Virus record (IMG/VR): IMGVR_UViG_3300019458_000033
Location: 1-64,000 of that record
Length of the DNA stretch: 64,000 nt
DNA from: a virus
Direction: 5' to 3' (one strand)
Shown: piece by piece, positions 7,770-21,791 of the stretch
Numbering within the stretch: position 1 is the first letter of the stretch
Layout of the letters: each line of letters opens with the position of its first letter
The notes under the pieces: model-generated
What the model was told of the DNA's origin: nothing
Database searches by the model: none
What the model saw: the letters and a program-made list of their open reading frames with translations, nothing else
Position numbers and translations under genes: made by a program

Positions 7770-7803
7770 GCCTGCTCGACAAGGTGGCACAGGCGGACTG
7801 AGG

Positions 7804-8430: not shown

Positions 8431-8439
8431 ATTATATAG

Positions 8440-9198: not shown

Positions 9199-9200
9199 AT

Positions 9201-9215
9201 TTGCGGAATCCGCAA
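9201..9215. repeat. palindrome family copy, perfect
   Basis: Starts 2 nt after the stop at 9198 and ends 17 nt before the ATG at 9233. Confidence 0.9.
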
Positions 9216-9232
9216 AAACAGAAAGGTATTCC

Positions 9233-9934
9233 ATGGGAAACGTTTATCAGATCCAAAATCCTGTCACCGGAAATCCCTACACCGTCGCGGATGGCCCGGT
9301 GCCAGGATTTGTCCTGGCTCCCGAGCGGTGGCGCTCGCAATATGCGCCCTATTGGCAGGTGTCGCCGTTCATGCCCGCGCCGTGGACGGCCTTCCCGCTC
9401 GATCCGGTGGAGCACGACGCCAAGCAAGAGCAGTTTGAGCGCGTGCAGGGCGTGATGCTGACCCGCAAGCAGTGGAACGACGCGGGCGGCTCAAACGCCG
9501 ACTACAAGCCGTTTTTGAGCCGCTACGGCCAGGACTACGAGTATTTCCTGGGGATCATTGACCCGATCCCCGCTGATCTGGCGGCGGGCATCGCCGCGCA
9601 CCAGCAGATGTGGGACGCCTACGGGCTGGGTTTGGCCGGCTGCAACGGCTTTGTGAATCGCGGCGCTGACCAGGCCGGGCGGCCCGAGATCGTCAACCTG
9701 TTTTTCGAGGACGCGCCGCTGCCGCCGCCCGCGTCGAAGCGAAGCGGCCGGCTGAAGTGGCGTAAGGAAGACGTGACGCCCGAGGCCCTTTCAAATAGCG
9801 CTGTCTGGGCGAACCAGTGCGTTATCGACTACCAGAAGGCGCTGATCGACGGCGGCATCTACGTGCCGCTACTGCACCCGCACGCGCCGGGTGAGTTGCA
9901 GCAGCGCAATGCGGCCCTGGCCCCGAAGGGCTAA
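9233..9934 (+). CDS. hypothetical protein
   Basis: ORF in track; GAAAGG upstream. Confidence 0.6.
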   Translation: MGNVYQIQNPVTGNPYTVADGPVPGFVLAPERWRSQYAPYWQVSPFMPAPWTAFPLDPVEHDAKQEQFERVQGVMLTRKQWNDAGGSNADYKPFLSRYGQDYEYFLGIIDPIPADLAAGIAAHQQMWDAYGLGLAGCNGFVNRGADQAGRPEIVNLFFEDAPLPPPASKRSGRLKWRKEDVTPEALSNSAVWANQCVIDYQKALIDGGIYVPLLHPHAPGELQQRNAALAPKG

Positions 9935-9944
9935 GGTGGAAAGC

Positions 9945-10160
9945 ATGTCCCTGAAAAGGCGGGAGTTTTTGGCGGCGCTGGTCGGAGCGCCGCTGACTAG
10001 CGCAGAGTTGCGGAATCCGCGAATCATCGTATGGAAGCCTCGTTCACTTGGCGTGACGACAGGGCAGAGGCTTCTCGTTTTGCAGCAGTGGCGCAATGGG
10101 TACATCAGTCCAGGCCCGGCCGAACTATTTCAGTTTATGTCCACGCTCACTGTAGAATAG
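9945..10160 (+). CDS. small protein with twin-arginine (Tat)-like N-terminus, paralogue 1
   Basis: SD AAGGTGG precedes the ATG. N-terminus MSLKRREFLAALVGAPLTSAELRNPR. The 5' end is near-identical to 13649-13729. Confidence 0.6.
   Translation: MSLKRREFLAALVGAPLTSAELRNPRIIVWKPRSLGVTTGQRLLVLQQWRNGYISPGPAELFQFMSTLTVE
9957..9991 (+). repeat. 35-bp perfect direct repeat, copy A (partner at 13661-13695)
   Basis: AGGCGGGAGTTTTTGGCGGCGCTGGTCGGAGCGCC is identical at both sites. An 18-nt core also occurs at 13229-13246. Confidence 0.9.
10008..10022. repeat. palindrome family copy, 1 mismatch (TTGCGGAATCCGCGA)
   Basis: Inside the CDS, where it reads LRNPR. Confidence 0.75.
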
Positions 10161-10167
10161 CTTCCAG

Positions 10168-12363
10168 GTGTACGACGCCGAGATCAACGAGCGGCGGCTG
10201 TTTAAGGCCGAGCAGGGTCTGGGGTTCAAGCTGACACGCTACGAACCCGGGGACTCGATCGACCGGGCCGCCGCCATCATCCGCAAGTACGACCCGCGTG
10301 CAAGACGCTGGAAGAATCCGCCCAATAAATCCGAGCACGAGTTCATCCTCAACGAGCGAACGCTGTGCCGGCATGACTTCCCATATTACACCCGCTACTG
10401 CCACGTCATCGACAAGGAATCCGGTCTAGTCCCCTACCGGCCATACAAGGCGCAGTGGATGCTCAACGAGTTTCGTGCCGAGCACGAGCGCGCTGGCATC
10501 GCAATGGAGTTCTTTAACCTCAAGGCGCGCCAGCTTGGGGTTTCGACCGATTCTGAGATGGTGGTCTCGCACCGGGCGCAGTTCGGCAAGTACCTGTATT
10601 GCCTGGTAGCCTCCGCCGACCCCGACAAGTCGAAAACGATGTCGGAAATGATGATCCGAAACTGGAAGGCGATGCCGTTTTTCCTTATGCCTGATCTAAC
10701 CTCGATTCGTAGCGGGGAGGAAATCCAGTTTGGCAACCAGGATGTAACAATCGCGATTGAGTGGCTCAACCAGAAGTCGGGCTTGGCGCGCGGCCAGACG
10801 CCGCACGTGGCCCACGTCAGTGAGGTCTCAATGTGCGAAGACCCGGAGGACAAGATCGACGCATCGCTAATGCGCGCCATGCACCCGTCGGCCAAGCTCT
10901 ACGCGATGTATGAATCGACCGCCAACGGCCAAGGAAACTGGTACCACGATACCTGGAAAACTACCAAAAAAGAGTATGCGGCAAGGCGCTCCAGGCTGCG
11001 GCCGGTCTTTCTGCCATGGTTTGTCGGAGATGACAAGTATCCGACGCCGGCATGGCTGAGAGCACAGCCTATCCCGAGCGATTGGAAGCCGCACGAGCTG
11101 ACCATCCGGCACGCCGAGCGCGCCGCGGTGCATGTAAAGAATACGCCGTATCTGTGGAAGCGACTTGGCCTGGGCTGGAAAATGCCGGTCGAGCAGATGT
11201 GGTTCTGGGAATGCACGCGAGAGACACACCGCCGAAATAAAACTCTAAACGTTTTCTATCAAGAGTTGTGCTCTGACGACATTGAGGCTTTTCAACTGGC
11301 GCTGACCTCGGTTTTCGACACTGAGCAAATCGCGCTATTCCTGGAGCATCAGAGGGAGCCGCTTCAGATTTGGGGCCTGCGCGCCTCCCCGGACGTAATT
11401 CCACCGCGTAACCAGCCCCAGGATTACGAGGTTGAAAAGGGAAGCGTGCGGCCAGGCAACGAGCCAAGGACGCTGACTTGTCCCAACGGCCAGAAGTTCG
11501 ATATGGTGCCAATTAACTACGAGCAGGCCAAAGCCGACCCGATGGGCAAAATCTTTATCTGGGAAGAGGCGAAACCAGGGAATCTCTACGGCATTGGCTG
11601 CGACCCAGGGCACGGCGTCGGCGAAGACCGCTCGGTAATCGAAGTCATGCGTAAATCGACCATAGCTCGTTGCCCAGGACTGGTTGCCGAATACGCAAAT
11701 GACCGCATCGGCGCTTCCGATATGTTGCCATTCGCCTATGCGCTAGGTGTGCTCTACACGACGACGGTGGAGGACTACCTGCGGCAGCCCAAATTCGTTG
11801 TCGCCGTTGACACCAGCGGCGACACACTGATGAAGGCGTTGATTCGGTTGGGGATGACCAATCAGCACATTTGGGTAACCTACGATCGGTACGGCCGCCA
11901 GATTACCAATAACCCGCGCCTGGGAGTGCTCGGGGTGCATTGGTTTCGCGAGAAGGCGACCGAGAAAATCGTCAAATCGTTGCGAGACTACCTGATCGAG
12001 GTCGATTCACCGTGGTTCCTCGAGGAGATGGGGACGTTAGGGTACGACCCTGGAAAAGATCGCTACGAAGCAAGCGCCCAGGCGCACGACGACCGATTCA
12101 TGGCAGCGGCTTATGTCCATCTTTCGCTTCACGTTGATGATCCAGAGCCGGCCAACTCCGCCTTTGGGCTGCGCAAGATCGAGGCCGAGGTGCCTATCGA
12201 GCAACGCTACGCCCGCTTCCCAGGAGACGCCTTCGCCTCGTCGCTGCCGCTGGGCGATGAGATGCGGGCCTATATGGACCGCTTTATGGGCGGCGCGCCA
12301 CCGCGCGCGCCCCAGCAGGCTAGCCGCGTCAGCTACATAAAGACAAAGCCGCCCGCATCGTGA
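10168..12363 (+). CDS. terL: terminase large subunit
   Basis: KARQLGVSTD Walker-A-like ATPase segment, CLVASAD, and a C-terminal RNaseH-like nuclease part (GIGCDPGHGVGEDRSVIEV, AHDDRFMAAAY). Lies upstream of the portal gene. GTG start is uncertain. Confidence 0.8.
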   Translation: MYDAEINERRLFKAEQGLGFKLTRYEPGDSIDRAAAIIRKYDPRARRWKNPPNKSEHEFILNERTLCRHDFPYYTRYCHVIDKESGLVPYRPYKAQWMLNEFRAEHERAGIAMEFFNLKARQLGVSTDSEMVVSHRAQFGKYLYCLVASADPDKSKTMSEMMIRNWKAMPFFLMPDLTSIRSGEEIQFGNQDVTIAIEWLNQKSGLARGQTPHVAHVSEVSMCEDPEDKIDASLMRAMHPSAKLYAMYESTANGQGNWYHDTWKTTKKEYAARRSRLRPVFLPWFVGDDKYPTPAWLRAQPIPSDWKPHELTIRHAERAAVHVKNTPYLWKRLGLGWKMPVEQMWFWECTRETHRRNKTLNVFYQELCSDDIEAFQLALTSVFDTEQIALFLEHQREPLQIWGLRASPDVIPPRNQPQDYEVEKGSVRPGNEPRTLTCPNGQKFDMVPINYEQAKADPMGKIFIWEEAKPGNLYGIGCDPGHGVGEDRSVIEVMRKSTIARCPGLVAEYANDRIGASDMLPFAYALGVLYTTTVEDYLRQPKFVVAVDTSGDTLMKALIRLGMTNQHIWVTYDRYGRQITNNPRLGVLGVHWFREKATEKIVKSLRDYLIEVDSPWFLEEMGTLGYDPGKDRYEASAQAHDDRFMAAAYVHLSLHVDDPEPANSAFGLRKIEAEVPIEQRYARFPGDAFASSLPLGDEMRAYMDRFMGGAPPRAPQQASRVSYIKTKPPAS

Positions 12364-12501
12364 TAGAGTCTGTGCAGGGCGGTGGTCGTTTACGACGGGT
12401 TCGAACCGGATCGACGGGACTTGGGGGCACGCCCTGGAGAGAGTCCAGGCCCGCCCGTTAAACGGAAGCGCAGTTTTGGTAAACAAAAGGAGCAAATTGG
12501 C

Positions 12502-12693
12502 ATGCCCCACGACAAGAACGGTAAACTGCTGCAAGCTGGCGATAAGGTGATCCTGCGCGGGACCGTCAAGGAAGTCTACACCAGCGAAGATTATTGTAAT
12601 TGCGCCGTAGTCCTTGAAGAGAAGATGCCCCCGGACAACACCGACACTGAGATCGCGGCGATTAACACGCACCAAGTCGAAAAGGCGGAATGA
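12502..12693 (+). CDS. hypothetical protein (63 aa)
   Basis: Strong SD AAAGGAG lies 10 nt upstream of the ATG at 12502. Confidence 0.55.
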   Translation: MPHDKNGKLLQAGDKVILRGTVKEVYTSEDYCNCAVVLEEKMPPDNTDTEIAAINTHQVEKAE

Positions 12694-13265
12694 CCACCTG
12701 CGAAAATTGCGGCGGCCCGGTCGAGATCGGGGATTTCCCGCTCTGCCGCGGCAACCCGGCTGACCACAAGGGCGGGCACGGCTCGATGCTGATCGGCAAT
12801 GCCGCCCGTATCGACACCGTGGTCTATTTCAAGAACTCCAAGGGCGAGGTCTGCCTGCCGGGGCGCAACGACGAGGCAACCCCGCGCGGCTACGAGCGCT
12901 GCGAGACGACGCAGCCCTCGGAGGTTCGCGGGCTGCTCAAGCGCATGGATACCGAGTCGCGCATCCAGCACGAGATGTCCCAGATGCGGCAAGAAATAGC
13001 GATGAACGAGCAGCGGACCGCGCTGCGCTCCGAGCTTCGCCGCCAGATGCAGTCGATGTCGCCCAGGGGCCGCGACTTTGCGCGCCTGGCGATCGAGCGC
13101 ACCAACAACCGCGCCCGGCCGCGCTTTGAGCCCGGCAACCATATGGTGGCGCTCGAATACAACGACTCCAACCACGATGCGGCGATGGCCAAGAACGGGA
13201 GAAACGACCATGCAGTTCAGCAGAAGGAAGTTTTTGGCGGCGCTGGGGCTGGCTCCGGCCACTAA
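12690..13265 (+). CDS. hypothetical protein with N-terminal zinc-ribbon-like CxxC
   Basis: MTTCENCGGPVEIGDFPLC. ATGA overlap with the upstream gene. The 3' end overlaps the next start. Confidence 0.5.
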   Translation: MTTCENCGGPVEIGDFPLCRGNPADHKGGHGSMLIGNAARIDTVVYFKNSKGEVCLPGRNDEATPRGYERCETTQPSEVRGLLKRMDTESRIQHEMSQMRQEIAMNEQRTALRSELRRQMQSMSPRGRDFARLAIERTNNRARPRFEPGNHMVALEYNDSNHDAAMAKNGRNDHAVQQKEVFGGAGAGSGH

Positions 13266-13662
13266 CCTCCCAGAAGCGAGGAAGGCGGTTGCGAAAAAAT
13301 CAGCACCAAGCCTCGATCACTTCGGACTTGGCAAACCGCTCTATGCCGGTGAATGGCTCTCTGACCTGATCGTCACGGAAGGCAATAAATACAGGCCGCC
13401 TGAGACCTTCGTATTGGTGATGCTGTCGCGTTCTGATGGTCGGCTGTTTGCCATGAAAACGCGGCAGTATGACGAGGTTACCGCCGGGTCCTGCGAGGCA
13501 GCGAAGCTCAGCGCGCAGATCCGTCTCGCCAAGGCGCTATTCGCAGAGAATCCTCAATTCTTGCGGTTTCACGGAGAAATAGCCAAGATCGCGGTACCGT
13601 TTCCGTTTGAGATCGTCAGCAGGGCTCTCGATCGATGGGGGATGGCGTATGTCGCTACGTAG
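13210..13662 (+). CDS. protein with Tat-like N-terminus, paralogue 2
   Basis: GGGAGA SD. N-terminus MQFSRRKFLAALGLAPATNLPEA. Confidence 0.55.
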   Translation: MQFSRRKFLAALGLAPATNLPEARKAVAKKSAPSLDHFGLGKPLYAGEWLSDLIVTEGNKYRPPETFVLVMLSRSDGRLFAMKTRQYDEVTAGSCEAAKLSAQIRLAKALFAENPQFLRFHGEIAKIAVPFPFEIVSRALDRWGMAYVAT

Positions 13663-14008
13663 GCGGGAGTTTTTGGCGGCGCTGGTCGGAGCGCCAGCGG
13701 CTAGCGCGGCCGGTTTGCGGATTCCGCAAATGGTCATGAAGACGCGCGCCATTGGGCCTACTGACCTTAGCCTGGCCGAGGTTCTCAACGACGGAATAAA
13801 TCCGAGTTGGGATGGGACGATCGAGGCGGCATACGCCGAAGCCGCGATCGGTGCCGGTGAGCCGGATCTGGGCTGGATGAACGCCGAGGCCATGCGGCAC
13901 TTCGAAGACTCTTTCTATCGGGTAGAGCCCACATTGAACGATATCAATCGATTCACCGTGCGCGAGATAAATAAGTCGGTGGTTGACGAGATTTTCGGCC
14001 GTGCCTGA
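13649..14008 (+). CDS. protein with Tat-like N-terminus, paralogue 3
   Basis: N-terminus MSLRRREFLAALVGAPAASAAGLRIPQMVMKTRAIGPT. The continuation resembles paralogue 1 (IIVWKPRSLGVT). Confidence 0.6.
   Translation: MSLRRREFLAALVGAPAASAAGLRIPQMVMKTRAIGPTDLSLAEVLNDGINPSWDGTIEAAYAEAAIGAGEPDLGWMNAEAMRHFEDSFYRVEPTLNDINRFTVREINKSVVDEIFGRA
13661..13695 (+). repeat. 35-bp perfect direct repeat, copy B
   Basis: Identical to 9957-9991. Confidence 0.9.
13715..13729. repeat. palindrome family copy, perfect (central T)
   Basis: Inside the CDS, where it reads LRIPQ. Confidence 0.9.
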
Positions 14009-14024
14009 CCAGACACCCAGCTAC

Positions 14025-16127
14025 ATGATCCCGGACCGATACTCGAAAGAGGAAGATCGGCTGGGGTGGCTGCGCGAAGCCTACCAGGAAGGCGACTCGT
14101 GGCTGCGCTCCCAAAAGGCGATGTCGCAGATGCGCGCGGCGATGGACCTGCTCGCCGGCAAAGAGATCGAGGACATTCCCGCCGAGTTATCGAAAGCCTT
14201 CCACAACCGCCTGAAACGCCAGATCCGCGAAGCTGTCGCCGTCCAGTCGCAAATCAATCCATCGTGGTACTACGAGACCTCGAATCCGCAGTTTGAGCCG
14301 GTCTCAGAGCAGGTTAACCAGTTGCTAAAAAGCTGGTGGTCGTCGTCGTTTGCCGACCTTGCCATTCGCAAGACCGTCCAGTATAAGGTGCCTCTGGGGA
14401 CCGGGTACTCGTCGCCGCGCTGGTCTAAGCCGCGAGGCTCATTCGGCGACGGCGAGATTGTGCTCGACTCGTTTGGGCCGGCTGACGTGCGACTGATCCA
14501 GCCGCCGCGCGACTACGACATTCAACGCTCCTACGCCGTAATCACTACGGTCGAGATGCCGATCAACATGGCGCGGGCAATGTACCCGGCCAAGGCTGCG
14601 CGCATCATCCCCGACCGCGACACGCCGACGTTTGGCGACTCGCAGGCAAAGCGCTGGATGGAGCGGATGACGCGCGGGTTCGGCTCGCTCGCCTACCGCA
14701 TGTTTGGCGTCAAAAAGACCAAAAAGGATCTGGAGACGCGCTTTCCGACCGTGGACGTGCACTATATGTACGTCAACGATGAGGCCATCAACGACTCGCA
14801 GACGGTCGTCTCGATGGGCCAGCCAGGTTCCACGTGGCACTATCAGGTGCCCTATTTCGGCCAGGACATCCCCGACGGGCTGCCCGACCCGGCTACCGGC
14901 CGGCAGACGATGCGGCCGGCCAAACTCGAAGATATCCGGCTCTATCCGCTGCGGCGGCTGGTGATCTTCACCAACACGGCGCTGCTCTACGACGACACCT
15001 CGATCTACTGGCATGGGCGGGTGCCGCTGGTGCGGTTCCGCTCCGACGATTGGCCCTGGGAAGCGCTGGGCTACGGGATGATTCTCGACGGCGCGCCGCT
15101 TCAACGCGAGTTGAACAACGTGCTGCGCGGGCTGGGCGACCGGGTGAACGTGTCGCTGCGGCCAGGGCTGTTGTTTGATGAGAACTCGATCTCGGCGCGC
15201 GAGATGGAGAAAGTTGATCCGCGCAAGCCCGGCGCCCGTATTCGGCTGAATCTGGCCGGCGCGCTGAACCCGATCTCGACGCTGCTGCCGCCCGAGTTGT
15301 TGCGGATTGATTCCTCCTGGGTCGAGTATATCCGGGTTATTGCCGAGTTCATGGATCATCAGTCGGCGGTGACCGACTTCCGCAATCTCGCGAAGGCGAA
15401 GCAAATCCCCTCCGACGCCACCATCGACAAAATCCTGGAGATTTCAGGGCCCCTGGTGCAGGACGAGACGCGCACGATGGAGAAGGCGATGGCGGAGTTG
15501 GGAGAGATGATCCTGCCGATGCTGTTCCAGTTCTACTCCCAGAAGCGCAAATTCTCGATTATTGCCAACGACAAAATTGGGGTGAGTTTCTTCGACTTCG
15601 ACCCGAAAAACCTCGTGCCTAATGAAATGCAGCCGGTGCTGAGCCGCATTCCAGAAACGCAGAAGTGGCGCGTCATGCAGGAGTTTCAGCACGCTTTCCG
15701 AATGGTCGTCCTGCCCAACAGCTTGCACGAAGCAACCCAAACACAGCAAAAGCTGCTCATGCTGCAACTGTGGCGGGACGGCCGCTTCCCGCTCGACCCG
15801 GTGACGCTGGCCCAAACGCTCGGTATCCGCAACTTTGGCGATCCGTGGCCGGAGGTGACCAGCGTCTACGACCGTTACAAGCACTATCTCAAGGACATGA
15901 CCGAGTTCCAGGCGATCCTGGGCGTGCTGGCGACCATGGTGCAGATGCGCGCCGGGCTCGGTGCGATGGCGGGAGGCGCTGGCGGCATGGAGCAGGGTGG
16001 CGCGCCGGGCGAGCAGCCCAAGGCGTTCCAGAACGGCGAGGAGCGGGGCCGGCCACCGAGCGGGCAGAAAATGCCGCAGATTAAATCGAAAGACGGCGGC
16101 GCGCGAACGACTGTAGCCGAAAGTTGA
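14025..16127 (+). CDS. portal protein
   Basis: About 700 aa, lying between the terminase and the scaffold/capsid genes. Acidic and glycine-rich C-terminus. ATG at 14025 follows the upstream stop at 14008. Confidence 0.7.
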   Translation: MIPDRYSKEEDRLGWLREAYQEGDSWLRSQKAMSQMRAAMDLLAGKEIEDIPAELSKAFHNRLKRQIREAVAVQSQINPSWYYETSNPQFEPVSEQVNQLLKSWWSSSFADLAIRKTVQYKVPLGTGYSSPRWSKPRGSFGDGEIVLDSFGPADVRLIQPPRDYDIQRSYAVITTVEMPINMARAMYPAKAARIIPDRDTPTFGDSQAKRWMERMTRGFGSLAYRMFGVKKTKKDLETRFPTVDVHYMYVNDEAINDSQTVVSMGQPGSTWHYQVPYFGQDIPDGLPDPATGRQTMRPAKLEDIRLYPLRRLVIFTNTALLYDDTSIYWHGRVPLVRFRSDDWPWEALGYGMILDGAPLQRELNNVLRGLGDRVNVSLRPGLLFDENSISAREMEKVDPRKPGARIRLNLAGALNPISTLLPPELLRIDSSWVEYIRVIAEFMDHQSAVTDFRNLAKAKQIPSDATIDKILEISGPLVQDETRTMEKAMAELGEMILPMLFQFYSQKRKFSIIANDKIGVSFFDFDPKNLVPNEMQPVLSRIPETQKWRVMQEFQHAFRMVVLPNSLHEATQTQQKLLMLQLWRDGRFPLDPVTLAQTLGIRNFGDPWPEVTSVYDRYKHYLKDMTEFQAILGVLATMVQMRAGLGAMAGGAGGMEQGGAPGEQPKAFQNGEERGRPPSGQKMPQIKSKDGGARTTVAES

Positions 16128-16130
16128 GTG

Positions 16131-16145
16131 TTGCGGAATCCGCAA
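16131..16145. repeat. palindrome family copy, perfect
   Basis: Junction reads TGA-GTG-palindrome-ATG: 3 nt after the portal stop and 0 nt before the ATG at 16146. Confidence 0.9.
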
Positions 16146-16418
16146 ATGCGCGTAACGTCAATAGAATACTTCTTCAATGACACCGAGGAGGCTCTCGCCT
16201 TCGCGAAGGCGAACGATCTGACCTGTTCGATCAGGATCAATCTCAGAAACGGCGTAATCTGCGGCGGCGCAAACCTGAGTACGCCTCGCCAGATCGATAC
16301 CGCCAACGGTATAATTGCGGAGTCGCCTCACGACCGGGGGCGGGGCGGCGAGGGCGACAAGCCCTCCCGTGAGTATTCCGGGAGTACAACCGCCGCCTCG
16401 CCCTTGACAAACCTGTAG
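16146..16418 (+). CDS. hypothetical protein (90 aa)
   Basis: MRVTSIEYFFNDTEEALAFAKANDL... The ATG directly abuts the palindrome and there is no SD. Confidence 0.5.
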   Translation: MRVTSIEYFFNDTEEALAFAKANDLTCSIRINLRNGVICGGANLSTPRQIDTANGIIAESPHDRGRGGEGDKPSREYSGSTTAASPLTNL

Positions 16419-16471
16419 CGTCGTGTCTTAATTGGTTCAGGCGGACGGCCCTTCCAAGGCTTACCGACTTG

Positions 16472-16509
16472 CCTCAATGGGATTTATTCCTGTTGAGGCT
16501 TTTTCTTTT
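16472..16509 (+). terminator. weak hairpin plus T-tract
   Basis: CCTCAA-15 nt-TTGAGG followed by CTTTTTCTTTTG. Confidence 0.3.
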
Positions 16510-16519
16510 GGGGCGCACA

Positions 16520-16732
16520 ATGGCCGGCGAGTTGTCAAAGGTCAGGAGCTTCACAAAGAAAGCCAGAACGCCAAAGCAAGCGCGGCAATGGAAACACGTC
16601 TACAACTCCCAGAAGCAGCGCGGGCTATCCGAGGGCAGGGCAATCGCTTCGGCGAGTGCGGCTGTCGGGCGGTCGGGTCGGGGCAAGCGAAGAGGCCGCT
16701 ACCGCAGACGGGAACGTTCCAGAGGGAGGTGA
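16520..16732 (+). CDS. small basic protein, ChaB-like pattern (tentative)
   Basis: ARTPKQARQWKHVYNSQKQRGLSEGRAIASASAAV followed by an Arg-rich tail. GC3 is higher in this frame than in the overlapping frame. Confidence 0.45.
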   Translation: MAGELSKVRSFTKKARTPKQARQWKHVYNSQKQRGLSEGRAIASASAAVGRSGRGKRRGRYRRRERSRGR

Positions 16733-16736
16733 TCCG

Positions 16737-16967
16737 TTGAAGGACTCAGGTCCCTACAAGGCCCGCACCGGGGATACGGTGAACCAGGTTCACTCCCCCA
16801 GCGGCACCATCGGCACCCACAAGGGGATGTCGATGAACCCGGCGAGCTACCCGAAGCGCTCGGGTGGCCAGACGGTTGGTCAGGTCCATTCCTCAGCCGG
16901 AACCATCGGCGAGTCGAAGGGTTTGATGCAGAACAAGGATAGCCAAATCCGCGGCGGCTCGAAGTAG
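16737..16967 (+). CDS. hypothetical protein with an internal 2x repeat
   Basis: GGGAGGTG SD upstream of the TTG at 16737. Repeats are GDTVNQVHSPSGTIGTHKG and GQTVGQVHSSAGTIGESKG. Confidence 0.45.
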   Translation: MKDSGPYKARTGDTVNQVHSPSGTIGTHKGMSMNPASYPKRSGGQTVGQVHSSAGTIGESKGLMQNKDSQIRGGSK

Positions 16968-16979
16968 CCGCGATTCAAC

Positions 16980-17294
16980 ATGGCAACCAGCGCGCTACCG
17001 CCTCTTCCCTCCCCAACGCCCGAAGGCCGGGCGATTCCAGAACTCATGTCGGCTCAGGCCGGGCTCAACCCTGGCGCAGCGCCGCCTCGTCCCGAGGATG
17101 CGCTGCAGGGGTACATGCGAATGATGGCCGAGTCGCACATGAACGTGGAAGAGGTTGCGCGGCGGTTTGCCACACGGCCGGATGTCACCGAAGCCGCCCA
17201 GGTGGCGCTTGAGGCTATCCGGAATCTGATGCAACGCATCACAGCCTCCGCGGACCTCGGAGTTGGCGACGAATCCGTACCGATCGGCGGGTAG
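16980..17294 (+). CDS. hypothetical protein
   Basis: ORF in track within the head module. Confidence 0.55.
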   Translation: MATSALPPLPSPTPEGRAIPELMSAQAGLNPGAAPPRPEDALQGYMRMMAESHMNVEEVARRFATRPDVTEAAQVALEAIRNLMQRITASADLGVGDESVPIGG

Positions 17295-17316
17295 CTGCCG
17301 ATGGCCCGAGGCCCGT

Positions 17317-17331
17317 TTGCGGAATCCGCAA
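17317..17331. repeat. palindrome family copy, perfect
   Basis: Intergenic, 22 nt after the stop at 17294 and 70 nt before the scaffold ATG. Confidence 0.9.
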
Positions 17332-17401
17332 ATCTGACTGGCTCGATGCGCGGGAGGGCTTAGCCTGGCCCCGCAGTCAATCGAAGGTCGAGAGATAAGC
17401 G

Positions 17402-18370
17402 ATGGCAAAAGCACCAGAATTCAGCGTTTCCGAATGGCTGGCCGAGCAACTCAAAGGCGCTCAGGTCTCAGACGAGGAACGCAAGGCAGTCGAGAAAGTA
17501 CTCGCCCAAGACGCCGTGGCTAAAAACATCTCAGCATCGGTGATGCGCCACAGCGACTATTCGCGTCGGCAGGATGAGCTTCGCCAGGAGCGCGAGAGCT
17601 TTGACGCCGACCGCAAGAAAATCAACCAGCAGTACCAGGATCGGCTTGCGGAGCTTTCCACCTGGGAAGGCACCGCCAAGCAAAAACTGGCCGAAGAGGA
17701 AAAAGCTCGCAAGCAAGCCGAGGCGGCAGCGGCCGCCGCCCAGCGCAAATACGCGAAAGCGGTCAAAGAAGCCGGGCTTGATCCGGCCGATCTTGGCCTC
17801 GACGATGACGACGATCTCGACCCGCCCCCGCGCCGTCAACCGGCATTCGATCCGGCCAAGGAGTGGGAGGCTCGCGAGGCTAAACTGCGCGCCGAGTTGA
17901 AGAAGGAATTCGAGAACGGCGCCGCCGAGTTGGTCAAGGTCATGGGGCCTTACCCGATTCAGCTTATGCAGCTACAGGCCGAGCACCAGCGGCTTTTCCC
18001 AGAGCAACCATTGGATGTTGGAGCCCTTTACAAGCAGTCGGTTGAGAAGGGCAAGCCGATGGATGAGATTTGGGCAGACCAGTTCCACGTCGCCGACCGG
18101 CGGGCGGAAATGGCTCAGAAGGCGATTGACGATCAGATCTCGCAGGCGCGCGCCGACGAGCGCCGCAAGGTGACCGAAGAGCTTGCGCGGCCACCGATGA
18201 TCGAACCGGAAAGTTACGGCTCCCCGGCCATGAAGAAGTTCGCGGCGAAACCCGGGAGTTCCGAGCAGGACGGCCTTAGCGGCATTGAACGCGCCGTGAT
18301 CGCCGCCCGACAGCACAAACACGCGCCGCCCTCAAGCCCTCACTGGAAGGGCCACCAAAACGGCGCTTAA
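17402..18370 (+). CDS. scaffolding protein (putative)
   Basis: Highly charged, Ala/Glu/Lys-rich coiled-coil-like sequence immediately upstream of the capsid gene. Confidence 0.6.
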   Translation: MAKAPEFSVSEWLAEQLKGAQVSDEERKAVEKVLAQDAVAKNISASVMRHSDYSRRQDELRQERESFDADRKKINQQYQDRLAELSTWEGTAKQKLAEEEKARKQAEAAAAAAQRKYAKAVKEAGLDPADLGLDDDDDLDPPPRRQPAFDPAKEWEAREAKLRAELKKEFENGAAELVKVMGPYPIQLMQLQAEHQRLFPEQPLDVGALYKQSVEKGKPMDEIWADQFHVADRRAEMAQKAIDDQISQARADERRKVTEELARPPMIEPESYGSPAMKKFAAKPGSSEQDGLSGIERAVIAARQHKHAPPSSPHWKGHQNGA

Positions 18371-18406
18371 CGACCGAAATCCGAGGGGCGGCCATTAGGA
18401 CGAAGC

Positions 18407-19519
18407 ATGGACCCACAATTTGACGAACTCAATGCAACGACCAAGATGGAGATGTACCCCTCGGTCCTCGAGGATGTCTTCTTCAAGGGCTCGCCGTTTC
18501 TGGCCTACATGAAGCAGGAAGGGCTGCACCCGTTCCACGGCGGCAGCTCCATGCGGAATGCCTTCGTGTTCCGGCCAGGCATTGGCGGCCCCTACTCGCC
18601 TGGTGACAATTTCCCCACCACGCGCGTCCCTTCGATCTCGGCAATGCAGTTTCGCCCGAAGTACTACTTCGCTGGCGTGCCCGAGTTCAAGGAAATCCTG
18701 CAAGTCGAAAACATCGGCGAAAACGCCGTCTACTCGATTGTCGATGTTGATCTGCGCAACGCGATGCAGACCATCAACGCGATCATTGCCATCGCGCTCT
18801 ACCGCGAAGGGCAGTCGGCGGGCCGCATTAAGCACCTCAACGGCCTCTCCGAGGTGATCGGCAACGGCACCGATCCGAGCTGGGAAGGCACGATTGCGAC
18901 CAGCTACGGCGGGCACCTGCGCGGCGGCGTTGTCGGCGACAAGCTGAGCGCGACACCGCTGTGGGTGGGCAACTCGGACGGCTCGGCTGGCACGATCCAG
19001 TACAAGCACCTCACCGAGTCGTATTGGGATTCCGCCCAAGGCGAGGATGAGCCCAATATCGGCCTCTGCAACAAGGCCGTGTTCGCCTTCATCCTGCAGC
19101 GCATCCAGCCGCAGCAACGCTTCGCCCAGGAGCAGGATCCCTACTGGGGCGCGACCAGCTTCAAGATGTTTCGCGCACGCATCATGGTCGACGAGTACGC
19201 ACCCTCGGCGATCTACGGCGAGTCGCACGCGGTGCTGGGGTCGAACCTGACCGGCAGCTTCGCCGGGCCGACGACACCGACCACCAAGTCGCGCATCCCC
19301 TCGGGCGCGGTGACGCTCACCATCGGCGAGACCTTTTTCTGGCTGAACACGCGCACGCTGATGTTCCGCATGGCGACCGACGAGGAATTCGGGTTTGGCT
19401 GGTCTGGCTTCAAGCCGGGCTTCGACAACACCCGCGTGTTCGGCGAGATCAAGGCGGCGATCAACCTGCAGTGTATCTCGCCTAAACTCAACAAGATGCT
19501 TTTTGGAATAGGGAGTTGA
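18407..19519 (+). CDS. major capsid protein (putative)
   Basis: 370 aa, positioned after the scaffold. The long antisense ORF opposite it is treated as a GC artefact. Confidence 0.7.
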   Translation: MDPQFDELNATTKMEMYPSVLEDVFFKGSPFLAYMKQEGLHPFHGGSSMRNAFVFRPGIGGPYSPGDNFPTTRVPSISAMQFRPKYYFAGVPEFKEILQVENIGENAVYSIVDVDLRNAMQTINAIIAIALYREGQSAGRIKHLNGLSEVIGNGTDPSWEGTIATSYGGHLRGGVVGDKLSATPLWVGNSDGSAGTIQYKHLTESYWDSAQGEDEPNIGLCNKAVFAFILQRIQPQQRFAQEQDPYWGATSFKMFRARIMVDEYAPSAIYGESHAVLGSNLTGSFAGPTTPTTKSRIPSGAVTLTIGETFFWLNTRTLMFRMATDEEFGFGWSGFKPGFDNTRVFGEIKAAINLQCISPKLNKMLFGIGS

Positions 19520-19560
19520 TCGATCCATTGGAGACAAGGAAACAAAGGAGATAGACCAAC

Positions 19561-20124
19561 ATGCGCACCAACGTTATCCAGGTCGCCAACGGTTCGATCC
19601 TCGACGCTGACGACCTCTATCCTGGCGGCGGAAACGAAGCGCCGGGCCTTGCGCCGGGCCAGTTGGGCAAGTCGATCGAGGTGGCCCCCGGCTATCTCGA
19701 TGTGGACTTCTGGGGCCGGGTGCAGTACGTGAAGCTCGACGCGGCGATCACGGTTGTACCTGTCCGCGGCACGCTCGCCTACTGGTCGGACAAGCCGAAT
19801 TTCGGGGTCACCTGCGACAACCCCACCGTGGGCGTCGCGCTGGCCGGAATCATTCTCGGCACGACCACCGACGGCCGCTATGTCTGGATTCAGAAGGAAG
19901 GCCGGGCTGTCGTCAAGTTCCTGTCGTCTACGACTAAGACGACTCCGGCGGCCGGCGATGCGGTTGTTCACAGCGGCACTTCCGGTCTGGCCGACGTGCT
20001 GGCCGATGCTACCGCGGTTGTGTTCGGAACCGACGCGGCACAGCTTAACCGGCTGATCGGCCATTTGGCCGGGTCGGTCGCGTCGCAGTTGGGCTCGGTC
20101 GATCTGATCCCGATCCCCGACTAG
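19561..20124 (+). CDS. head-associated structural protein (decoration-like, tentative)
   Basis: SD AAAGGAG. Position directly after the capsid gene. Confidence 0.5.
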   Translation: MRTNVIQVANGSILDADDLYPGGGNEAPGLAPGQLGKSIEVAPGYLDVDFWGRVQYVKLDAAITVVPVRGTLAYWSDKPNFGVTCDNPTVGVALAGIILGTTTDGRYVWIQKEGRAVVKFLSSTTKTTPAAGDAVVHSGTSGLADVLADATAVVFGTDAAQLNRLIGHLAGSVASQLGSVDLIPIPD

Positions 20125-20128
20125 CATT

Positions 20129-20143
20129 TTGCGGAATCCGCAA
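20129..20143. repeat. palindrome family copy, perfect
   Basis: Starts 4 nt after the stop at 20124. Confidence 0.9.
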
Positions 20144-20148
20144 ACGGC

Positions 20149-20168
20149 GGGGCCTGGCCTCAGGCCCC
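20149..20168 (+). terminator. strong GC hairpin after the capsid genes (attenuator/terminator candidate)
   Basis: GGGGCCTG-gcct-CAGGCCCC gives an 8-bp stem. No U-tract follows. Confidence 0.4.
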
Positions 20169-20190
20169 AGCCAACTTGAGCGAGGCAAGC

Positions 20191-20595
20191 ATGGCTATCA
20201 CCAGACCGTTTCTCGAACAGTGGATGGAAGGCAACGTTTGCAAGATCATTGCCGACGTGGTCTTGCCGACGAGCTATGCCGCTGGCGGCATGTCGATTAC
20301 CGCGGGCGATCTGGGGATGGCGAAAATCCTCGGCGCACGGCAGTTGGGCGTGGTAACCGCCGGCGTCGGCGCGCTCTACGTCTGGAATCAGACCACGGGC
20401 AAGCTGATGGTCATCCTGCCGACCGGCGGCGCTGAGGCTTCGCCGACGACGCTGGCGGCTCCGGCTATTGCGGAAGCCGGCTCGGGTGGCGACTCGGCCG
20501 ATTTCACGATCGTTCCCGGCGTGGGCAAAGAGATCGCCGCGACCGCAAACCTTTCCAGCGTGACCGTTCGCATGGAATTCACCTGCATCCCCTAG
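20191..20595 (+). CDS. hypothetical structural protein
   Basis: ATG at 20191 within track ORF 20176-20595. Confidence 0.55.
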   Translation: MAITRPFLEQWMEGNVCKIIADVVLPTSYAAGGMSITAGDLGMAKILGARQLGVVTAGVGALYVWNQTTGKLMVILPTGGAEASPTTLAAPAIAEAGSGGDSADFTIVPGVGKEIAATANLSSVTVRMEFTCIP

Positions 20596-20606
20596 CAAGC
20601 AAATGA

Positions 20607-21569
20607 ATGTCATACGCGACCACGTGGGCGTTCCTCCAGGCGCAGCTCCCCGAGCTGAACGCGCTGATGGCTCAGCGGCTTGTTCAGCGCGCCTGGGAAA
20701 AACTCCGCGATGAGCGCGATGTTTGGTCGTTTCTTGTCAGAAAGACTGCCCTCAACGTTCATGCCGCCGTCACCGCCGGCAGCGTCACTGTAACCATCAA
20801 CGACAACGAAGTCACCGCGGATTCGACCGCCAAGGCCGCTCTCGATGCCCAGGATGCGCTGAACGGGTCGATCTGGCTGGGCTGGATCTTCCGCATCGGC
20901 AGCGGGCCGGTCTACCGGATTTCCTCTTACGACACTGGCACGGGCGTCATCACGCTCGACCGGGTTTACTTTGAGGATTCCGCCTCGGGCGCGACCTACG
21001 CCGTGCAGCAGGCTTATCTGCGCCCGCCGGCTAACTTCAAGTCCTGGGTCTCGGTGGTTGACACCTACGAGGACTTCGCGCTGGATTTGGAAACCACCAC
21101 TCAGGAGATCGACCGCGCCGACCCGCTGCGCTCCGCGGTCGATACGCCGACCCTGCTCGCGCCATTCACGTTTGAGGCGACGGCGGGCTACACGGGGCCT
21201 CTTTATGAACTCTACCCGCACGCGGTCTCGCGGCGCTCCTATCCGGCGCTCTATCGGACGGATGATTACGACTGGGTCGGCGGGCGCGATCTGCCGGTGT
21301 CGATTCCACAGACGCTGATCGAGGATCTGGCGATGGTCGAAGCCTACGAGTGGGCCGAAGCCAACCGCGAGCGCCACAAGGGCCTGGCCGGCGCCGACTG
21401 GCGGTTTCTGATTGCCGGCAAGGCGCGCGTGATCGAGGATGCCAAGCGCAAGGCGCGCAACAACGACGCAAACCTGCTGCTGACGACGTTCGGGTCGAAC
21501 TATCTCAAACCAAAGCGAGGTGTGGGGGCGAACTACCTGATGACGCACGCACCCTATACGCCTCAGTAA
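20607..21569 (+). CDS. hypothetical structural protein
   Basis: ORF in track; the antisense ORF of similar size is rejected. Confidence 0.6.
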   Translation: MSYATTWAFLQAQLPELNALMAQRLVQRAWEKLRDERDVWSFLVRKTALNVHAAVTAGSVTVTINDNEVTADSTAKAALDAQDALNGSIWLGWIFRIGSGPVYRISSYDTGTGVITLDRVYFEDSASGATYAVQQAYLRPPANFKSWVSVVDTYEDFALDLETTTQEIDRADPLRSAVDTPTLLAPFTFEATAGYTGPLYELYPHAVSRRSYPALYRTDDYDWVGGRDLPVSIPQTLIEDLAMVEAYEWAEANRERHKGLAGADWRFLIAGKARVIEDAKRKARNNDANLLLTTFGSNYLKPKRGVGANYLMTHAPYTPQ

Positions 21570-21581
21570 AAGGAGTCACGT

Positions 21582-21788
21582 ATGAACCTTCCCAAGATCG
21601 CAAACGGCGGCAAGGTGGTCCAAAGCCACGAGCCGTCTCCGCTATCCCAGATCGCCAAGCACGGCGATGGGCCGATTCCCTACATCACCAGGGACAACCG
21701 CATCCCCCACAACCTGCCGCCCGGCATGGGCCACGGCACCGGCACGGCTCGGCCGCCTGCCGGCGGCAACAAGAAAGAGGGGTACTAA
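21582..21788 (+). CDS. hypothetical protein (68 aa)
   Basis: SD AAAGGAG upstream. Confidence 0.5.
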   Translation: MNLPKIANGGKVVQSHEPSPLSQIAKHGDGPIPYITRDNRIPHNLPPGMGHGTGTARPPAGGNKKEGY

Positions 21789-21791
21789 GCC

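Follow-up and report, generated by a model that had tools for sequence, protein, structure and literature searches.

The window analysed here is a stretch of 64,000 nucleotides, positions 1-64,000 of the IMG/VR virus record IMGVR_UViG_3300019458_000033, which probably represents a soil phage with a host among the Acidobacteriota. The phage group is podovirus-like, linked to Acidobacteriota and barely studied. At two junctions of the window, a stop codon, a 15-bp palindrome and an ATG follow closely upon each other. On the plus strand (16125-16148), the portal stop codon TGA (16125-16127) is followed by GTG (16128-16130), TTGCGGAATCCGCAA (16131-16145, + strand) and the directly adjoining ATG (16146-16148). 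On the minus strand, TGA (51568-51566), the stop codon of the gene 51566-52351(-), is followed by AAG, TTGCGGAATCCGCAA (51562-51548), a single A (51547) and ATG (51546-51544). Both copies of the palindrome are perfect and begin 3 nt past the stop codon, and both junctions, which lack a Shine-Dalgarno (SD) sequence, have a gap of 18-19 nt between stop codon and ATG. The layout given in the initial annotation was confirmed base by base.

The first junction palindrome precedes a 90-aa ORF (16146-16418, + strand) with a weak coding signal, downstream of which a strong terminator (16471-16499) follows. This ORF has no homologue in the relatives and no family match. The second precedes a 175-aa ORF (51019-51546, - strand), also without a family match. 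Since GTG 16128 and TTG 16131 share the frame of ATG 16146 (ORF 16128-16418), the true start could precede the palindrome or sit inside it. The minus-strand ORF has further in-frame ATGs upstream, at 51591 and 51627 (ORF 51019-51627). In the gene calls of an identical public contig, the two genes start at 16146 and 51546.

The 15-bp core TTGCGGAATCCGCAA is part of a 17-bp dyad with a single central base pair, tTTGCGGA-A-TCCGCAAa (8+1+8 bp), which can equally be written as the arms TTTGCGG and CCGCAAA around an AAT centre (7+3+7). We found 20 sites with at most two mismatches in the window (38 strand matches), 12 of them perfect and 8 with one or two mismatches, while 0.36 sites are expected and 100 shuffles yielded a maximum of 4. 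The copies agree in their exact sequence and not merely in structure (12 identical 15-mers). In every copy with at most two mismatches the central base pair is A or T, never G or C. Only 7.0% of the window is non-coding, yet this fraction wholly contains 8 of the 12 perfect copies (p=2e-7); two perfect copies lie deep within ORFs. Among the aligned window copies, no sequence is conserved on the 3′ side, where A-rich or mixed sequence is found.

Several further copies had been described as starting directly past stop codons or ending 7-27 nt before start codons, and their positions hold (starts at 4934, 9233, 6597, 38157, 50251 and 59424). The perfect copy 4912-4926 (+) starts 1 nt past the stop codon of ORF 4734-4910 and ends 7 nt before ATG 4934; its position at a stop codon requires that this 58-aa ORF, plausibly coding for a small membrane protein, is genuine. 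Two other perfect copies are 9201-9215 (+), 2 nt past stop 9198 (gene 8440-9198) and 17 nt before ATG 9233, and 20129-20143 (+), 4 nt past stop 20124 and 47 nt before ATG 20191, which is followed by a G+C-rich hairpin without a T run. Copy 6559 does follow stop 6556, but it carries three mismatches (TTGCAACATCCGCAA). Three perfect copies occupy longer spacers. Copy 17317-17331 (+) lies in a spacer of 107 nt, 22 nt past stop 17294 and 70 nt before ATG 17402. Copy 54382-54396 (-) lies in a spacer of 193 nt, at a distance of 127 nt from the stop at 54524 and of 51 nt from ATG 54330, and has an 8-nt 3′ flank, ATTTAAAA, in common with copy 4912. Copy 62063-62077 (+) is found in a 346-nt spacer of a leftward operon, with T as the central base on the sense (-) strand. 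A further perfect copy, 59441-59455 (-), is located in the last codons of gene 59427-59804(-), 16 nt upstream of ATG 59424 with its strong SD (GAGGAGG).

The remaining perfect copies are intragenic. Copy 13715-13729 (-) lies inside ORF 13649-14008, directly past a Tat-like signal peptide; on the plus strand it is adjoined by the in-frame ATG 13730. It belongs to a segment of ca. 80 nt that is duplicated at 9945-10022, where the one-mismatch copy TTGCGGAATCCGCGA (10008-10022, +) is found in a small Tat-like ORF (9945-10160) upstream of TerL. Copy 33158-33172 (-) is deep in gene 30541-34035, antisense as judged by its central base, and encodes F-A-D-S-A-N, while copy 43192-43206 (+), deep in the gene for a 2133-aa protein (41121-47522), which we take to be a virion protein, encodes V-A-E-S-A-N. 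One-mismatch copies are also found at the junction of genes 50248-51003(-) and 49859-50251(-) (50275-50289, +; sense strand TTGCGGATTTCGCAA), 23 nt before ATG 50251, which has an SD, and at 63749-63763 (+; sense (-) strand TTGCGGATTCCGCAG), which follows the stop of a 39-aa ORF by 24 nt and precedes ATG 63714 by 34 nt. The latter variant recurs outside the window (L274, 3422-3436). Three others lie inside genes: TTGCGGAATTCGCAA at 2508-2522 (-) in gene 1891-2574(-), 34670-34684 (-) in the signal-peptide codons of gene 34630-37755, and 41662-41676 (+) in the 2133-aa gene. A two-mismatch copy, 38115-38129 (-), is located in the divergent spacer 38045-38156. A degenerate copy with three mismatches (CTGCGGAAGTCGCAA, 3294-3308, +), possibly a chance match, ends 2 nt upstream of ATG 3311.

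Related phages, with portal proteins 28-48% identical to that of the window, have junction repeats of their own. Of 34 related loci examined, only four (L115, L116, L120 and L147) show a repeat, and the sequences differ. The repeat of L116, GTGCGGA-A-TCCGCAC, has both outer bases changed together relative to the window. In L120 the repeat is TCCGCAAA-T-TTTGCGGA, so that the half-site is everted compared to TTTGCGGA-A-TCCGCAAA in the window. There are 7 sites in L120 and 8 in L147, with 0.01 expected in each case, while L115 has 4 sites in the locus and more on the extended contig. Further junction repeats of relatives are GTCCAACGTTAGAC and TCCACAAGTTGGA; in Tunturi_1, no repeat was found in 50 kb. 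Cultured relatives form clear plaques (PMC11924767). Even at a portal identity of no more than 41-47%, phages retain the GCGGAATCCGC core and the 8-nt half-site, which implies long-term selection on the sequence. The palindrome of the window also occurs in an unrelated viral contig as a cluster of 4-5 repeats inside one gene. From its sequence alone, this gene can be read as a lambda-O-like replication initiator, and there a protein thus probably binds the palindrome as DNA.

The two SD-less junctions had been set against most other genes, which were described as having clear SDs. This holds for about two thirds of the genes only. When SD-less is defined as an anti-SD duplex weaker than -4 kcal/mol, 23 of 72 genes fall into this class, among them portal (14025), TerL (10168) and the 2133-aa gene (41121). 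The genes at 16146 and 51546 score -3.5 each. As a third of the phage genes are SD-less anyway, the lack of an SD after a copy does not point to a special mechanism, and the palindrome can hardly be regarded as an SD substitute. One could still imagine that the palindrome itself is a device for translational coupling, which holds the terminating ribosome or juxtaposes stop and start codon so that an SD is dispensable. The two junctions with only 18-19 nt from stop to ATG would fit, as would copy 3232 of L116, which is likewise found 5′ of an SD-less ATG. However, most junction copies, in the window as well as in relatives, are followed by a normal SD, nearly all SD-less genes lack a palindrome, and some copies are far from any start while others are within ORFs. 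We thus consider such a device very improbable.

Nor is the layout fixed. Between stop and palindrome there are 1 to 184 nt, and between palindrome and start 0 to 147 nt, with no constant geometry in roomy spacers. A transcript 5′ end at the ATG had also been proposed, but neither ATG 16146 nor ATG 51546 has a -10 element at the correct distance. Conservation of the junction spacing, checked at the junction 3′ of portal, is largely lacking: there is no palindrome at this position in L116 and L115, while in L120 it occurs 163 nt downstream. In L147 the repeat starts 1 nt past the portal stop and falls within the first codons of the next ORF, as this ORF begins at an overlapping TAATG. For another of the options, cleavage into leaderless mRNAs, no positive evidence emerged. 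What remains of the proposed intercistronic function is a functional element between cistrons, for which, among the options listed in the initial annotation, an operator fits best.

Three copies touch sigma-70-like sites. The degenerate copy 3294 starts 2 nt past the -10 of TTGACA-17-TAGGAT (3263-3291, +), which is at the head of the rightward operon, and covers the expected start site. The perfect copy 4912 fills the 17-nt spacer of TTGACT-17-TAAAAT (4907-4935, +). In TTGCAA-17-TATTAT (38120-38092, -), the TTGCAA arm of copy 38115 is the -35 hexamer. Thus 3 of 12 distinct predicted promoters are in contact with a copy, while ca. 0.3 would be by chance, as estimated from the fraction of the window near a copy; these promoters are consensus matches, no more numerous in total than in shuffles, and the promoters of the host are uncharacterised. 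In each of the three cases the copy has a different position relative to the hexamers. The perfect copy 62063 is located ca. 140 nt downstream of a predicted terminator (62244-62218, -) and ca. 75 nt upstream of a promoter-like site (61989-61962, -). No copy is found near TTGACA-18-TATACT (L274, 2347-2318), which is the genome's strongest promoter-like site.

Two simple roles were considered and rejected. The palindrome is not itself a sigma-70-type promoter, as no downstream hexamer is conserved and only three copies coincide with promoter-like sites. It is not an intrinsic (rho-independent) terminator either, given a hairpin of only -7.2 kcal/mol and no T run after the copies; canonical terminators are predicted elsewhere, at 16471-16499 and 62244-62218.

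Two helix-turn-helix (HTH) proteins are encoded by the rightward operon headed by the promoter-like site 3263-3291. The gene 3625-4212 (+) codes for a protein of 195 aa with a weak HTH_31 or repressor-like N-terminus. Its homologue in L270 is the first gene past a divergent region, with L270's own repeat 13 nt upstream, a position that corresponds to that of the degenerate copy 3294 at the start of the HTH_31 operon. The gene 5164-5757 (+) codes for a protein of 197 aa with an HTH_17 N-terminus (excisionase/MerR-type winged helix). Among the relatives compared, clear HTH_17 homologues are restricted to the repeat-bearing L115, L116 and L120, with a weak match in the repeat-less L119. When the HTH_17 homologues are compared, their recognition helices do not clearly covary with the repeats.

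We tentatively favour the interpretation that the palindrome is a multi-copy operator for a dimeric HTH protein of the phage, squeezed into minimal spacers, and hold it with confidence a little short of even. Operators of HTH dimers, such as those of lambda and 434, are typically 17-bp dyads with an A/T centre. The binding protein may be the product of 3625-4212 or of 5164-5757. Copies that touch core promoter elements would modulate initiation, while those between cistrons may act as roadblocks or local regulatory sites, similar to the stoperators of mycobacteriophages or the KorB sites of RK2. As ca. 93% of the genome is coding, a fixed sequence of 15-17 bp survives mostly in short intergenic gaps, and for this reason a copy often fills the whole spacer between stop and start or between stop and SD. 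Both SD-less downstream cistrons would be translated by termination-reinitiation or by SD-independent initiation, as may be the case for the other SD-less genes.

An operator is favoured by the exact sequence conservation, the dyad geometry, the symmetric changes between lineages, the promoter contacts and the position of copy 62063 between terminator and promoter. It is also favoured by the antisense copies within ORFs, the weakness of the hairpin, the occurrence of the L147 and L115 repeats in both orientations, the placement of the HTH_31 gene in L270, the co-occurrence with HTH_17 and the repeat cluster of the unrelated contig. On the other hand, the proteins scanned include neither an integrase nor a lysogeny module, so that it is not obvious what a stoperator-type repressor would do. 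The lack of HTH_17 helix covariation, the copy-free strongest promoter, a bias for A on the sense strand and variants compatible with G-U pairing also count against an operator, and the everted half-site of L120 is hard to reconcile with one rigid dimer architecture.

The bias for A and the G-U compatible variants would fit an element of the transcript, with a 7-bp stem and an AAU or AUU triloop that is bound by an RNA-binding protein or endoribonuclease of phage or host. Such an element may serve in processing, stability or translational control, and cleavage at its 3′ base would yield leaderless or short-leader mRNAs for 16146 and 51546. All eight perfect copies at transcribed junctions have A as the central base on the sense strand. 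In L120, the five copies at or adjoining junctions have T on the sense strand and the two intra-ORF copies have A. Four variants (50275, 63749, L274 3422 and 10008) allow G-U or U-G pairing exclusively on the sense strand, and in four phages junction copies are found 0-27 nt 5′ of start codons. A weak point in favour is an MBL-fold protein (58415-59191), as this fold includes RNases but Apyc1-type enzymes match too. Against this stands that the hairpin of -7.2 kcal/mol is weak and is missing from the minimum-energy fold of the 51548 junction. When variant copies are included, the junction bias becomes 8 A versus 4 T, which is not significant. The perfect copy 62063 lies past a strong terminator and before the next promoter-like site, and the perfect copies 13715 and 33158 are antisense within ORFs. 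The repeats of L147 and L115 are asymmetric but occur in both orientations within co-directional gene blocks (3 versus 4 and 2 versus 2, respectively), which argues against a transcript-level element. In long spacers the distance to the start varies (47, 51, 70 and 147 nt), and Rfam 15 gives no match at gathering score anywhere in the window. We regard an RNA element as possible but rather unlikely.

Recognition of the repeat as a folded hairpin may also be envisaged more broadly, be it RNA, extruded DNA or single-stranded DNA but not a B-form duplex, that is bound or cut by a sequence- and structure-specific phage protein, e.g. by an endoribonuclease that cleaves polycistronic mRNA at the base of the stem. 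The upstream mRNAs would then be hairpin-capped, and the downstream mRNAs would begin at ATG 16146 and one base before ATG 51546. As eversion in L120 keeps the stem duplex and places the loop at the opposite end, recognition of the stem explains this case more easily than does a rigid dimer. Overall, this possibility appears improbable to us.

Stem-loops can also act as promoters. The early promoters of phage N4 have a stem-loop shape that resembles that of the palindrome, and a promoter for a phage RNA polymerase or sigma factor, with its start at or near the next ATG, would agree with the 6-7-bp stem, the 3-nt loop, the central purine on the sense strand of most copies and the two copies that abut an ATG. 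However, Pfam and PHROGs scans of the large and early proteins revealed neither an RNA polymerase nor a sigma factor. Also, ca. 20 copies are too many, including late-gene, antisense and deep intragenic ones; the sequence downstream of the copies is not conserved, and the distance to the start varies from 0 to 147 nt. After most junction copies the SD follows so closely that a downstream start site would remove it. A promoter of this type is thus the least probable of the roles considered.

Several copies are associated with gene insertions. L272 lacks the insertion of two genes (4734-5161) to which copy 4912 belongs; there, the HTH_17 gene directly adjoins the homologue of 4217-4741. Copies 9201 and 10008 belong to a block (8440-10160) which, compared to L116 and L115, is inserted between TerL and the possible small-terminase gene 7804-8430. 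Identity between gene 8440-9198 and its L270 homologue, which has another locus and strand, is 62%, compared to 27-53% for the other shared proteins. Together with the copy-bearing segment of ca. 80 nt duplicated upstream of TerL and of portal, and the flank common to copies 4912 and 54382, this would be consistent with a palindrome that marks or promotes indels and shuffling of small accessory genes by short homology and spreads with them, any regulation being secondary. Recombination between repeats has been proposed for the 17-bp repeat of Cluster O mycobacteriophages (PMC4351075). However, no transposase, RAYT or integrase was detected among the proteins scanned, the GCGGAATCCGC core and half-site are kept in phages with strongly diverged portals, and copies 17317 and 20129 are flanked by conserved genes in synteny with those of relatives. 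That recombination is the primary role seems doubtful to us, about on a par with recognition as a folded hairpin.

Dispersed phage-specific palindromes have already been described, the closest known analogue being the Cluster O repeat. In Corndog and its relatives it reads 5′-TGTTCGG-NNN-CCGAACA, and its authors suggest that it is bound by a dimeric regulator (PMC4351075). TTTGCGG-AAT-CCGCAAA has the same 7+3+7 layout, with 7-bp arms and an A/T-rich 3-bp centre. In both systems the copies are near-invariant, number in the tens in a genome of ca. 70 kb, occur in short gaps and at gene 5′ ends with a minority deep in genes, and are associated with indels. Sequence, host phylum and virion type differ, and no homology is implied. 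Orientation preference is slight among the 34 copies of Corndog; of the 20 copies in the window (12 perfect, 8 variant), the perfect ones at junctions tend to have A on the sense strand. Arms, centre and the many junction-enriched copies thus agree with a repeat of the Cluster O type, but sharing across the cluster does not: one repeat is common to all five Cluster O genomes, whereas it has diverged or been lost among the relatives of the window phage.

Dispersed palindromes are also known from phiC31, and dispersed sites occur as the stoperators of Cluster A mycobacteriophages. The latter (L5 gp71) are ca. 20-30 repressor sites across the operons, mostly in short gaps and overlapping stop or start codons, with one operator at the early promoter and an orientation preference relative to transcription. 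They are asymmetric 13-bp sites to which the immunity repressor of a temperate phage binds as a monomer, whereas the window site is a dyad; its orientation signal is restricted to one base pair and, in contrast to stoperators, not significant once variants are included. A stoperator system was rejected, as there is no consistent orientation, and the proteins scanned gave no integrase and only weak HTH_31 or repressor-like matches. The KorB operators (OB) of RK2 and the inverted repeats of the phiC31 repressor comprise 12-18 copies of a 13-17-bp palindrome in replicons of 40-60 kb, some at promoters and some far from any, and in each system a single global regulator binds them all. KorB is a ParB-family protein, whereas the only ParB-type match in the window is the ddrB-ParB domain of the 2133-aa protein, and no HTH of the KorB type was detected. 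phiC31 is temperate, whereas no lysogeny module was found among the scanned proteins of the window phage. To our knowledge, neither system prefers positions directly past stop codons. In this respect the palindromes resemble REPs, which are found just 3′ of stop codons inside operons and can affect upstream-gene expression and mRNA stability. REPs, however, are imperfect, 20-40 nt long with a GTAG or CGTC head, more stable and mobilised by RAYTs, while the element described here is a weak hairpin (-7.2 kcal/mol) of 15-17 nt. A REP/RAYT element was rejected, as the dyad is perfect and no transposase was detected among the proteins scanned.

The copies are of use for annotation, as they mark gene boundaries, predicted promoters and recent insertions, while a missing SD downstream of a copy is not to be taken as a sign of a special initiation mechanism. 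The fast change of the repeat among relatives, by symmetric base changes, everted half-sites and loss, provides a natural series in which the protein that reads the palindrome and the role of the site may be found.

The dispersed palindrome of the window is a real and functional element. In its 15-mer, TTGCGGAATCCGCAA, one central base is flanked by arms of 7 bp each, and an extended 17-mer form, TTTGCGGAATCCGCAAA, is present in 8 of the 12 perfect copies. Together with 8 further copies that have one or two mismatches, these stand against 0.36 copies expected from shuffled sequences, and one more variant copy was found in the 3,988 bp of the genome that lie outside the window. Eight of the 12 perfect copies are wholly non-coding, compared with 7.0% of the window as a whole (p=2e-7, based on a curated gene list).

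An exact scan of IMG/VR with the 15-mer and a scan of metagenome contigs with the 17-mer returned, among the matches listed, almost only single, chance-level occurrences. The multi-copy matches were rejected as unrelated, being an intragenic repeat cluster (L006) and longer tandem or duplicated repeats (L159, L191). On L006 (IMGVR_UViG_3300013131_003009, 3990-4150), an unrelated viral contig, 4-5 clustered copies of GTTGCGGAATCCGCAAC lie within a gene for 257 aa. From its sequence, this gene looks like a lambda-O-type replication initiator and the cluster like origin iterons; the initiator-like protein has no homologue among the window proteins. On L159 (Ga0065721_10010896, 135-345), a metagenome contig unrelated to the window phage, the palindrome occurs in every unit of a tandem array with a period of 65 nt.

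The initial annotation had drawn attention to two junctions, at 16125-16148 (+) and 51568-51544 (-), where the palindrome occupies the space between a stop codon and the next ATG and a Shine-Dalgarno (SD) sequence is missing. Both read exactly as reported. The other copies listed as adjacent to stops or starts are all present, but the one at 6559 carries three mismatches; the stop at 4910, which adjoins the copy at 4912, ends an ORF of 58 aa. The layout itself turned out not to be special. The anti-SD duplex is weaker than -4 kcal/mol in 23 of the 72 genes, including those for the portal, for TerL and for a protein of 2133 aa, and the two junction genes (starting at 16146 and 51546) score -3.5. 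Spacing is variable, as the perfect intergenic copies lie 1, 2, 3, 3, 4, 22, 127 and 184 nt past a stop and 0, 1, 7, 17, 47, 51, 70 and 147 nt before a start. In roomy spacers the palindrome is at no fixed distance from either neighbour. It "fills" short spacers because these contain little else, and an SD, if present, occupies the 10-15 nt next to the start and thus pushes the element against the stop. In addition, GTG 16128 and TTG 16131 are in the same frame as ATG 16146 and represent alternative starts. The ORF at 16146-16418 has a weak coding signal and no homologue in the relatives.

The genome assembly is circular, with 67,988 bp, and the window covers 64,000 bp of it (G+C 0.62). Circularity is based on ENA contig k141_894899 (68,129 nt, terminal overlap of 141 nt) and on another contig which bridges both window ends and is from the same sample as Logan contig SRR7811943_22166. 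The Logan contig (44,395 nt, corresponding to window 13666-58060) was compared with the window over 26 kb, at its two ends, and shows 100% identity; therefore the same phage has been sampled at least twice. Genes are on the + strand from about 3.3 to 48.8 kb and on the - strand from 48.8 kb to past the window end. The + strand begins with an early/regulatory block, followed by the genes for the TerL-like protein (10168-12363), the portal (14025-16127), the major head protein (18407-19519), several proteins of more than 1000 aa, and the 2133-aa protein, which has a ddrB-ParB domain (41121-47522). A collagen-repeat protein is encoded at 23538-24503. Products of the - strand are an SbcC-like ATPase, a RecT-like protein, an MBL-fold protein with a weak match to anti-Pycsar Apyc1 (58415-59191) and a pentapeptide-repeat protein (56395-56943). 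An RNA ligase 1-like domain (5762-6556) and a HAD/polynucleotide-kinase-3'-phosphatase-like protein (2571-3239, - strand) together suggest an RNA-repair function, which may counter host anticodon nucleases. Rfam and tRNA scans gave no matches.

The nearest deposited phages, and the only ones matched by tblastn, are the Tunturiibacter phages Tunturi_1 and Tunturi_2, with a portal that is 28% identical. Both are podoviruses that infect Acidobacteriota, and their plaques are clear (PMC11924767). The sole match among genomes of bacteria and archaea is a contig that was binned with an Acidobacteriaceae MAG, and the best portal matches in 5.8 billion proteins show 47-48% identity. A megablast search of INPHARED with window 14000-22000 and a single-protein portal scan of IMG/VR gave no matches, and INPHARED, IMG/VR, tblastn and the 5.8 billion proteins yielded no close relative as a partner for fine-scale comparison. 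The set of relatives includes 30 IMG/VR loci, obtained from an alignment of 20 portals, and two Logan contigs found by identity look-up.

Conservation of the junction layout in related phages had been proposed as a check. At the post-portal junction of four repeat-bearing relatives it is not kept: L116 and L115 have no repeat there, and in L120 the repeat is 163 nt downstream. In L147 it is found 1 nt past the stop, but the next ORF begins at an overlapping TAATG, so that the repeat sits within the first codons of that ORF; between the window and L147, the ORFs that follow the portal show no similarity (E=0.18). The evidence does not support the idea that the palindrome replaces the SD or places a transcript start at the ATG, and a translational coupling device is unlikely.

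Another option of the initial annotation, an operator, is supported. We tentatively favour the reading that the palindrome may be a multi-copy binding site for an HTH dimer of the phage, packed into minimal intergenic spacers; the putative dimer would bind the individual copies. A role at the DNA level is preferred because the copies match in sequence and because the 8+1+8 dyad with its A/T-only centre has the geometry of an operator for an HTH dimer. The main rival is a hairpin element acting at the RNA level, which we consider rather unlikely. The central base on the sense strand is A in 8 of 8 perfect copies at transcribed junctions, and several single-transition variants (50275, 63749, 10008, and 3422 on L274, a contig with sequence from outside the window) are wobble-compatible only on the sense strand. 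However, the central base is A in 8 and T in 4 cases when variant junction copies, one of them outside the window, are added, and both trends are then non-significant. The hairpin is weak (-7.2 kcal/mol) and missing from some minimum-energy folds, and there are intragenic perfect copies in antisense orientation. Overall, fewer points support the RNA element than the DNA site.

In favour of a DNA-level role, three sigma-70-like sites coincide with copies, and the position of the copy differs from one promoter to the next, but promoter calls are consensus matches with a count no higher than in shuffled sequences, which counts against an operator. For TTGACA-17-TAGGAT (3263-3291, +) a degenerate copy lies past the -10, over the expected start site; for TTGACT-17-TAAAAT (4907-4935, +) a perfect copy fills the spacer; and for TTGCAA-17-TATTAT (-) the -35 is one arm of the copy at 38115. 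That the palindrome is itself a promoter is unlikely: inspection of the sequence at each copy revealed no conserved -10 downstream, which led us to reject both ECF-type and sigma-70-type promoters. A terminator was rejected since the stem is weak and a T run is absent. Two strong canonical intrinsic terminators, with stems of 12 bp and 10 bp followed by T runs, are found at 16471-16499 (+) and 62244-62218 (-). The former closes the operon ending in the portal gene and ORF 16146-16418, and by implication the head and tail genes have a promoter of their own; no such promoter was found. The perfect copy at 62063 lies between terminator 62244-62218 and the next promoter-like site, which again favours a DNA site.

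Also in favour of a DNA site, candidate binders are encoded by two genes of one operon. The product of 3625-4212 has weak HTH_31 and repressor-like matches, and that of 5164-5757 has an HTH_17 domain with a profile match to the excisionase-type factor RdfS (E=7e-10). In L270, which is the same phage as L115, a copy of its own repeat precedes the HTH_31 homologue by 13 nt, this homologue being the first gene past the divergent region, and at the counterpart position in the window a degenerate copy heads the HTH_31 operon. Clear HTH_17 homologues were found only in L115, L116 and L120, all of which bear repeats, while L119, without a repeat, has one weak match. The HTH_31 protein retrieved only itself in a homologue search, and the HTH_17 profile retrieved five proteins beyond the query but no additional repeat-bearing genome. 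Several observations count against the operator. The HTH_17 recognition helix and the repeat sequence, compared across four phages, show no visible covariation. A second divergent regulatory region, outside the window and between its positions 64000 and 1 on the circle (L274 2181-2758, with a gene for a 512-aa AAA ATPase downstream), has a promoter-like site that is stronger than any other in the genome (TTGACA-18-TATACT, 11/12 matches) but no palindrome copy.

The closest known system is the 17-bp repeat TGTTCGG-NNN-CCGAACA of Cluster O mycobacteriophages. The recombination role suggested for that repeat fits the association of our copies with rearrangements. Copy 4912 is inside a two-gene insertion that is missing from the relative L272, in which the HTH_17 gene adjoins the homologue of 4217-4741. 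Copies 9201 and 10008 belong to an inserted block that separates gene 7804-8430, possibly the small terminase, from TerL. Gene 8440-9198, which precedes copy 9201, codes for 252 aa that are 62% identical to the product of L270 7426-8166(-), at another locus and on the opposite strand next to a PNK-phosphatase-like gene; other shared proteins show 27-53%, and by this measure the gene has probably moved recently. Finally, a duplicated segment of about 80 nt, with a copy in it, is found upstream of both TerL and portal. We nevertheless regard a boundary of cassettes or recombination, be it as a rival explanation or as a secondary role, as quite improbable and rank it after the RNA element. The regions 9945-10022 and 13649-13729 belong to two small ORFs, one immediately before TerL and one immediately before the portal gene, whose common N-terminus, MSL(K/R)RREFLAALVGAP...(T/A)SA, resembles a twin-arginine (Tat) signal peptide. 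They share an identical stretch of 35 nt, upstream of which differences are synonymous or conservative, and each contains a palindrome copy just past the predicted cleavage site. Tat-type signals are unexpected on packaging-module phage proteins.

L116, L120, L147 and L115/L270 each have a junction repeat of their own. The L116 repeat, GTGCGGA-A-TCCGCAC, has the core found in the window with both outer bases altered together, and two copies are located 3 nt past stops, followed by an SD. L120 (IMGVR_UViG_3300042196_000161; portal 41% identity) has 7 sites (2302-18166, against 0.01 expected), two of them at junctions that read stop, 2 nt, repeat, SD, ATG. The most unusual detail is that this related phage has retained the half-site and inverted the order: the window has TTTGCGGA-A-TCCGCAAA and L120 has TCCGCAAA-T-TTTGCGGA, with the identical 8-nt half-site in everted order. 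None of the explanations tried accounts for this inversion; for a rigid dimer the everted order is awkward, which also counts against the operator. The repeats of L147 (GTCCAACGTTAGAC, 8 sites against 0.01 expected) and L115/L270 (TCCACAAGTTGGA) are asymmetric and occur in both orientations inside same-direction gene blocks (3 vs 4 in L147, 2 vs 2 in L115). Two copies in L270 (8644-8669, 13576-13602) have the longer form TCCAC(A/T)AGTTGGAGTTGACATAAT, after which an ATG follows within 0-2 nt. The 3' GGAG of the repeat could serve as SD, and the arrangement is reminiscent of the start-associated sequences of Cluster K mycobacteriophages. In the same phage the TerL homologue (1070 aa, L115 5594-8806, equivalent to L270 15247-18459) contains an intein, which bears a homing endonuclease domain of the LAGLIDADG type.

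No comparable repeat was detected in the remaining 30 related loci, and the initial 50 kb of the genome of the cultured phage Tunturi_1 contain no dispersed palindrome. Judged by the sequences compared, the repeat is under selection for its sequence and not for structure alone. With four relatives having their own versions, such repeats thus represent a recurrent, fast-changing feature of this phage lineage.
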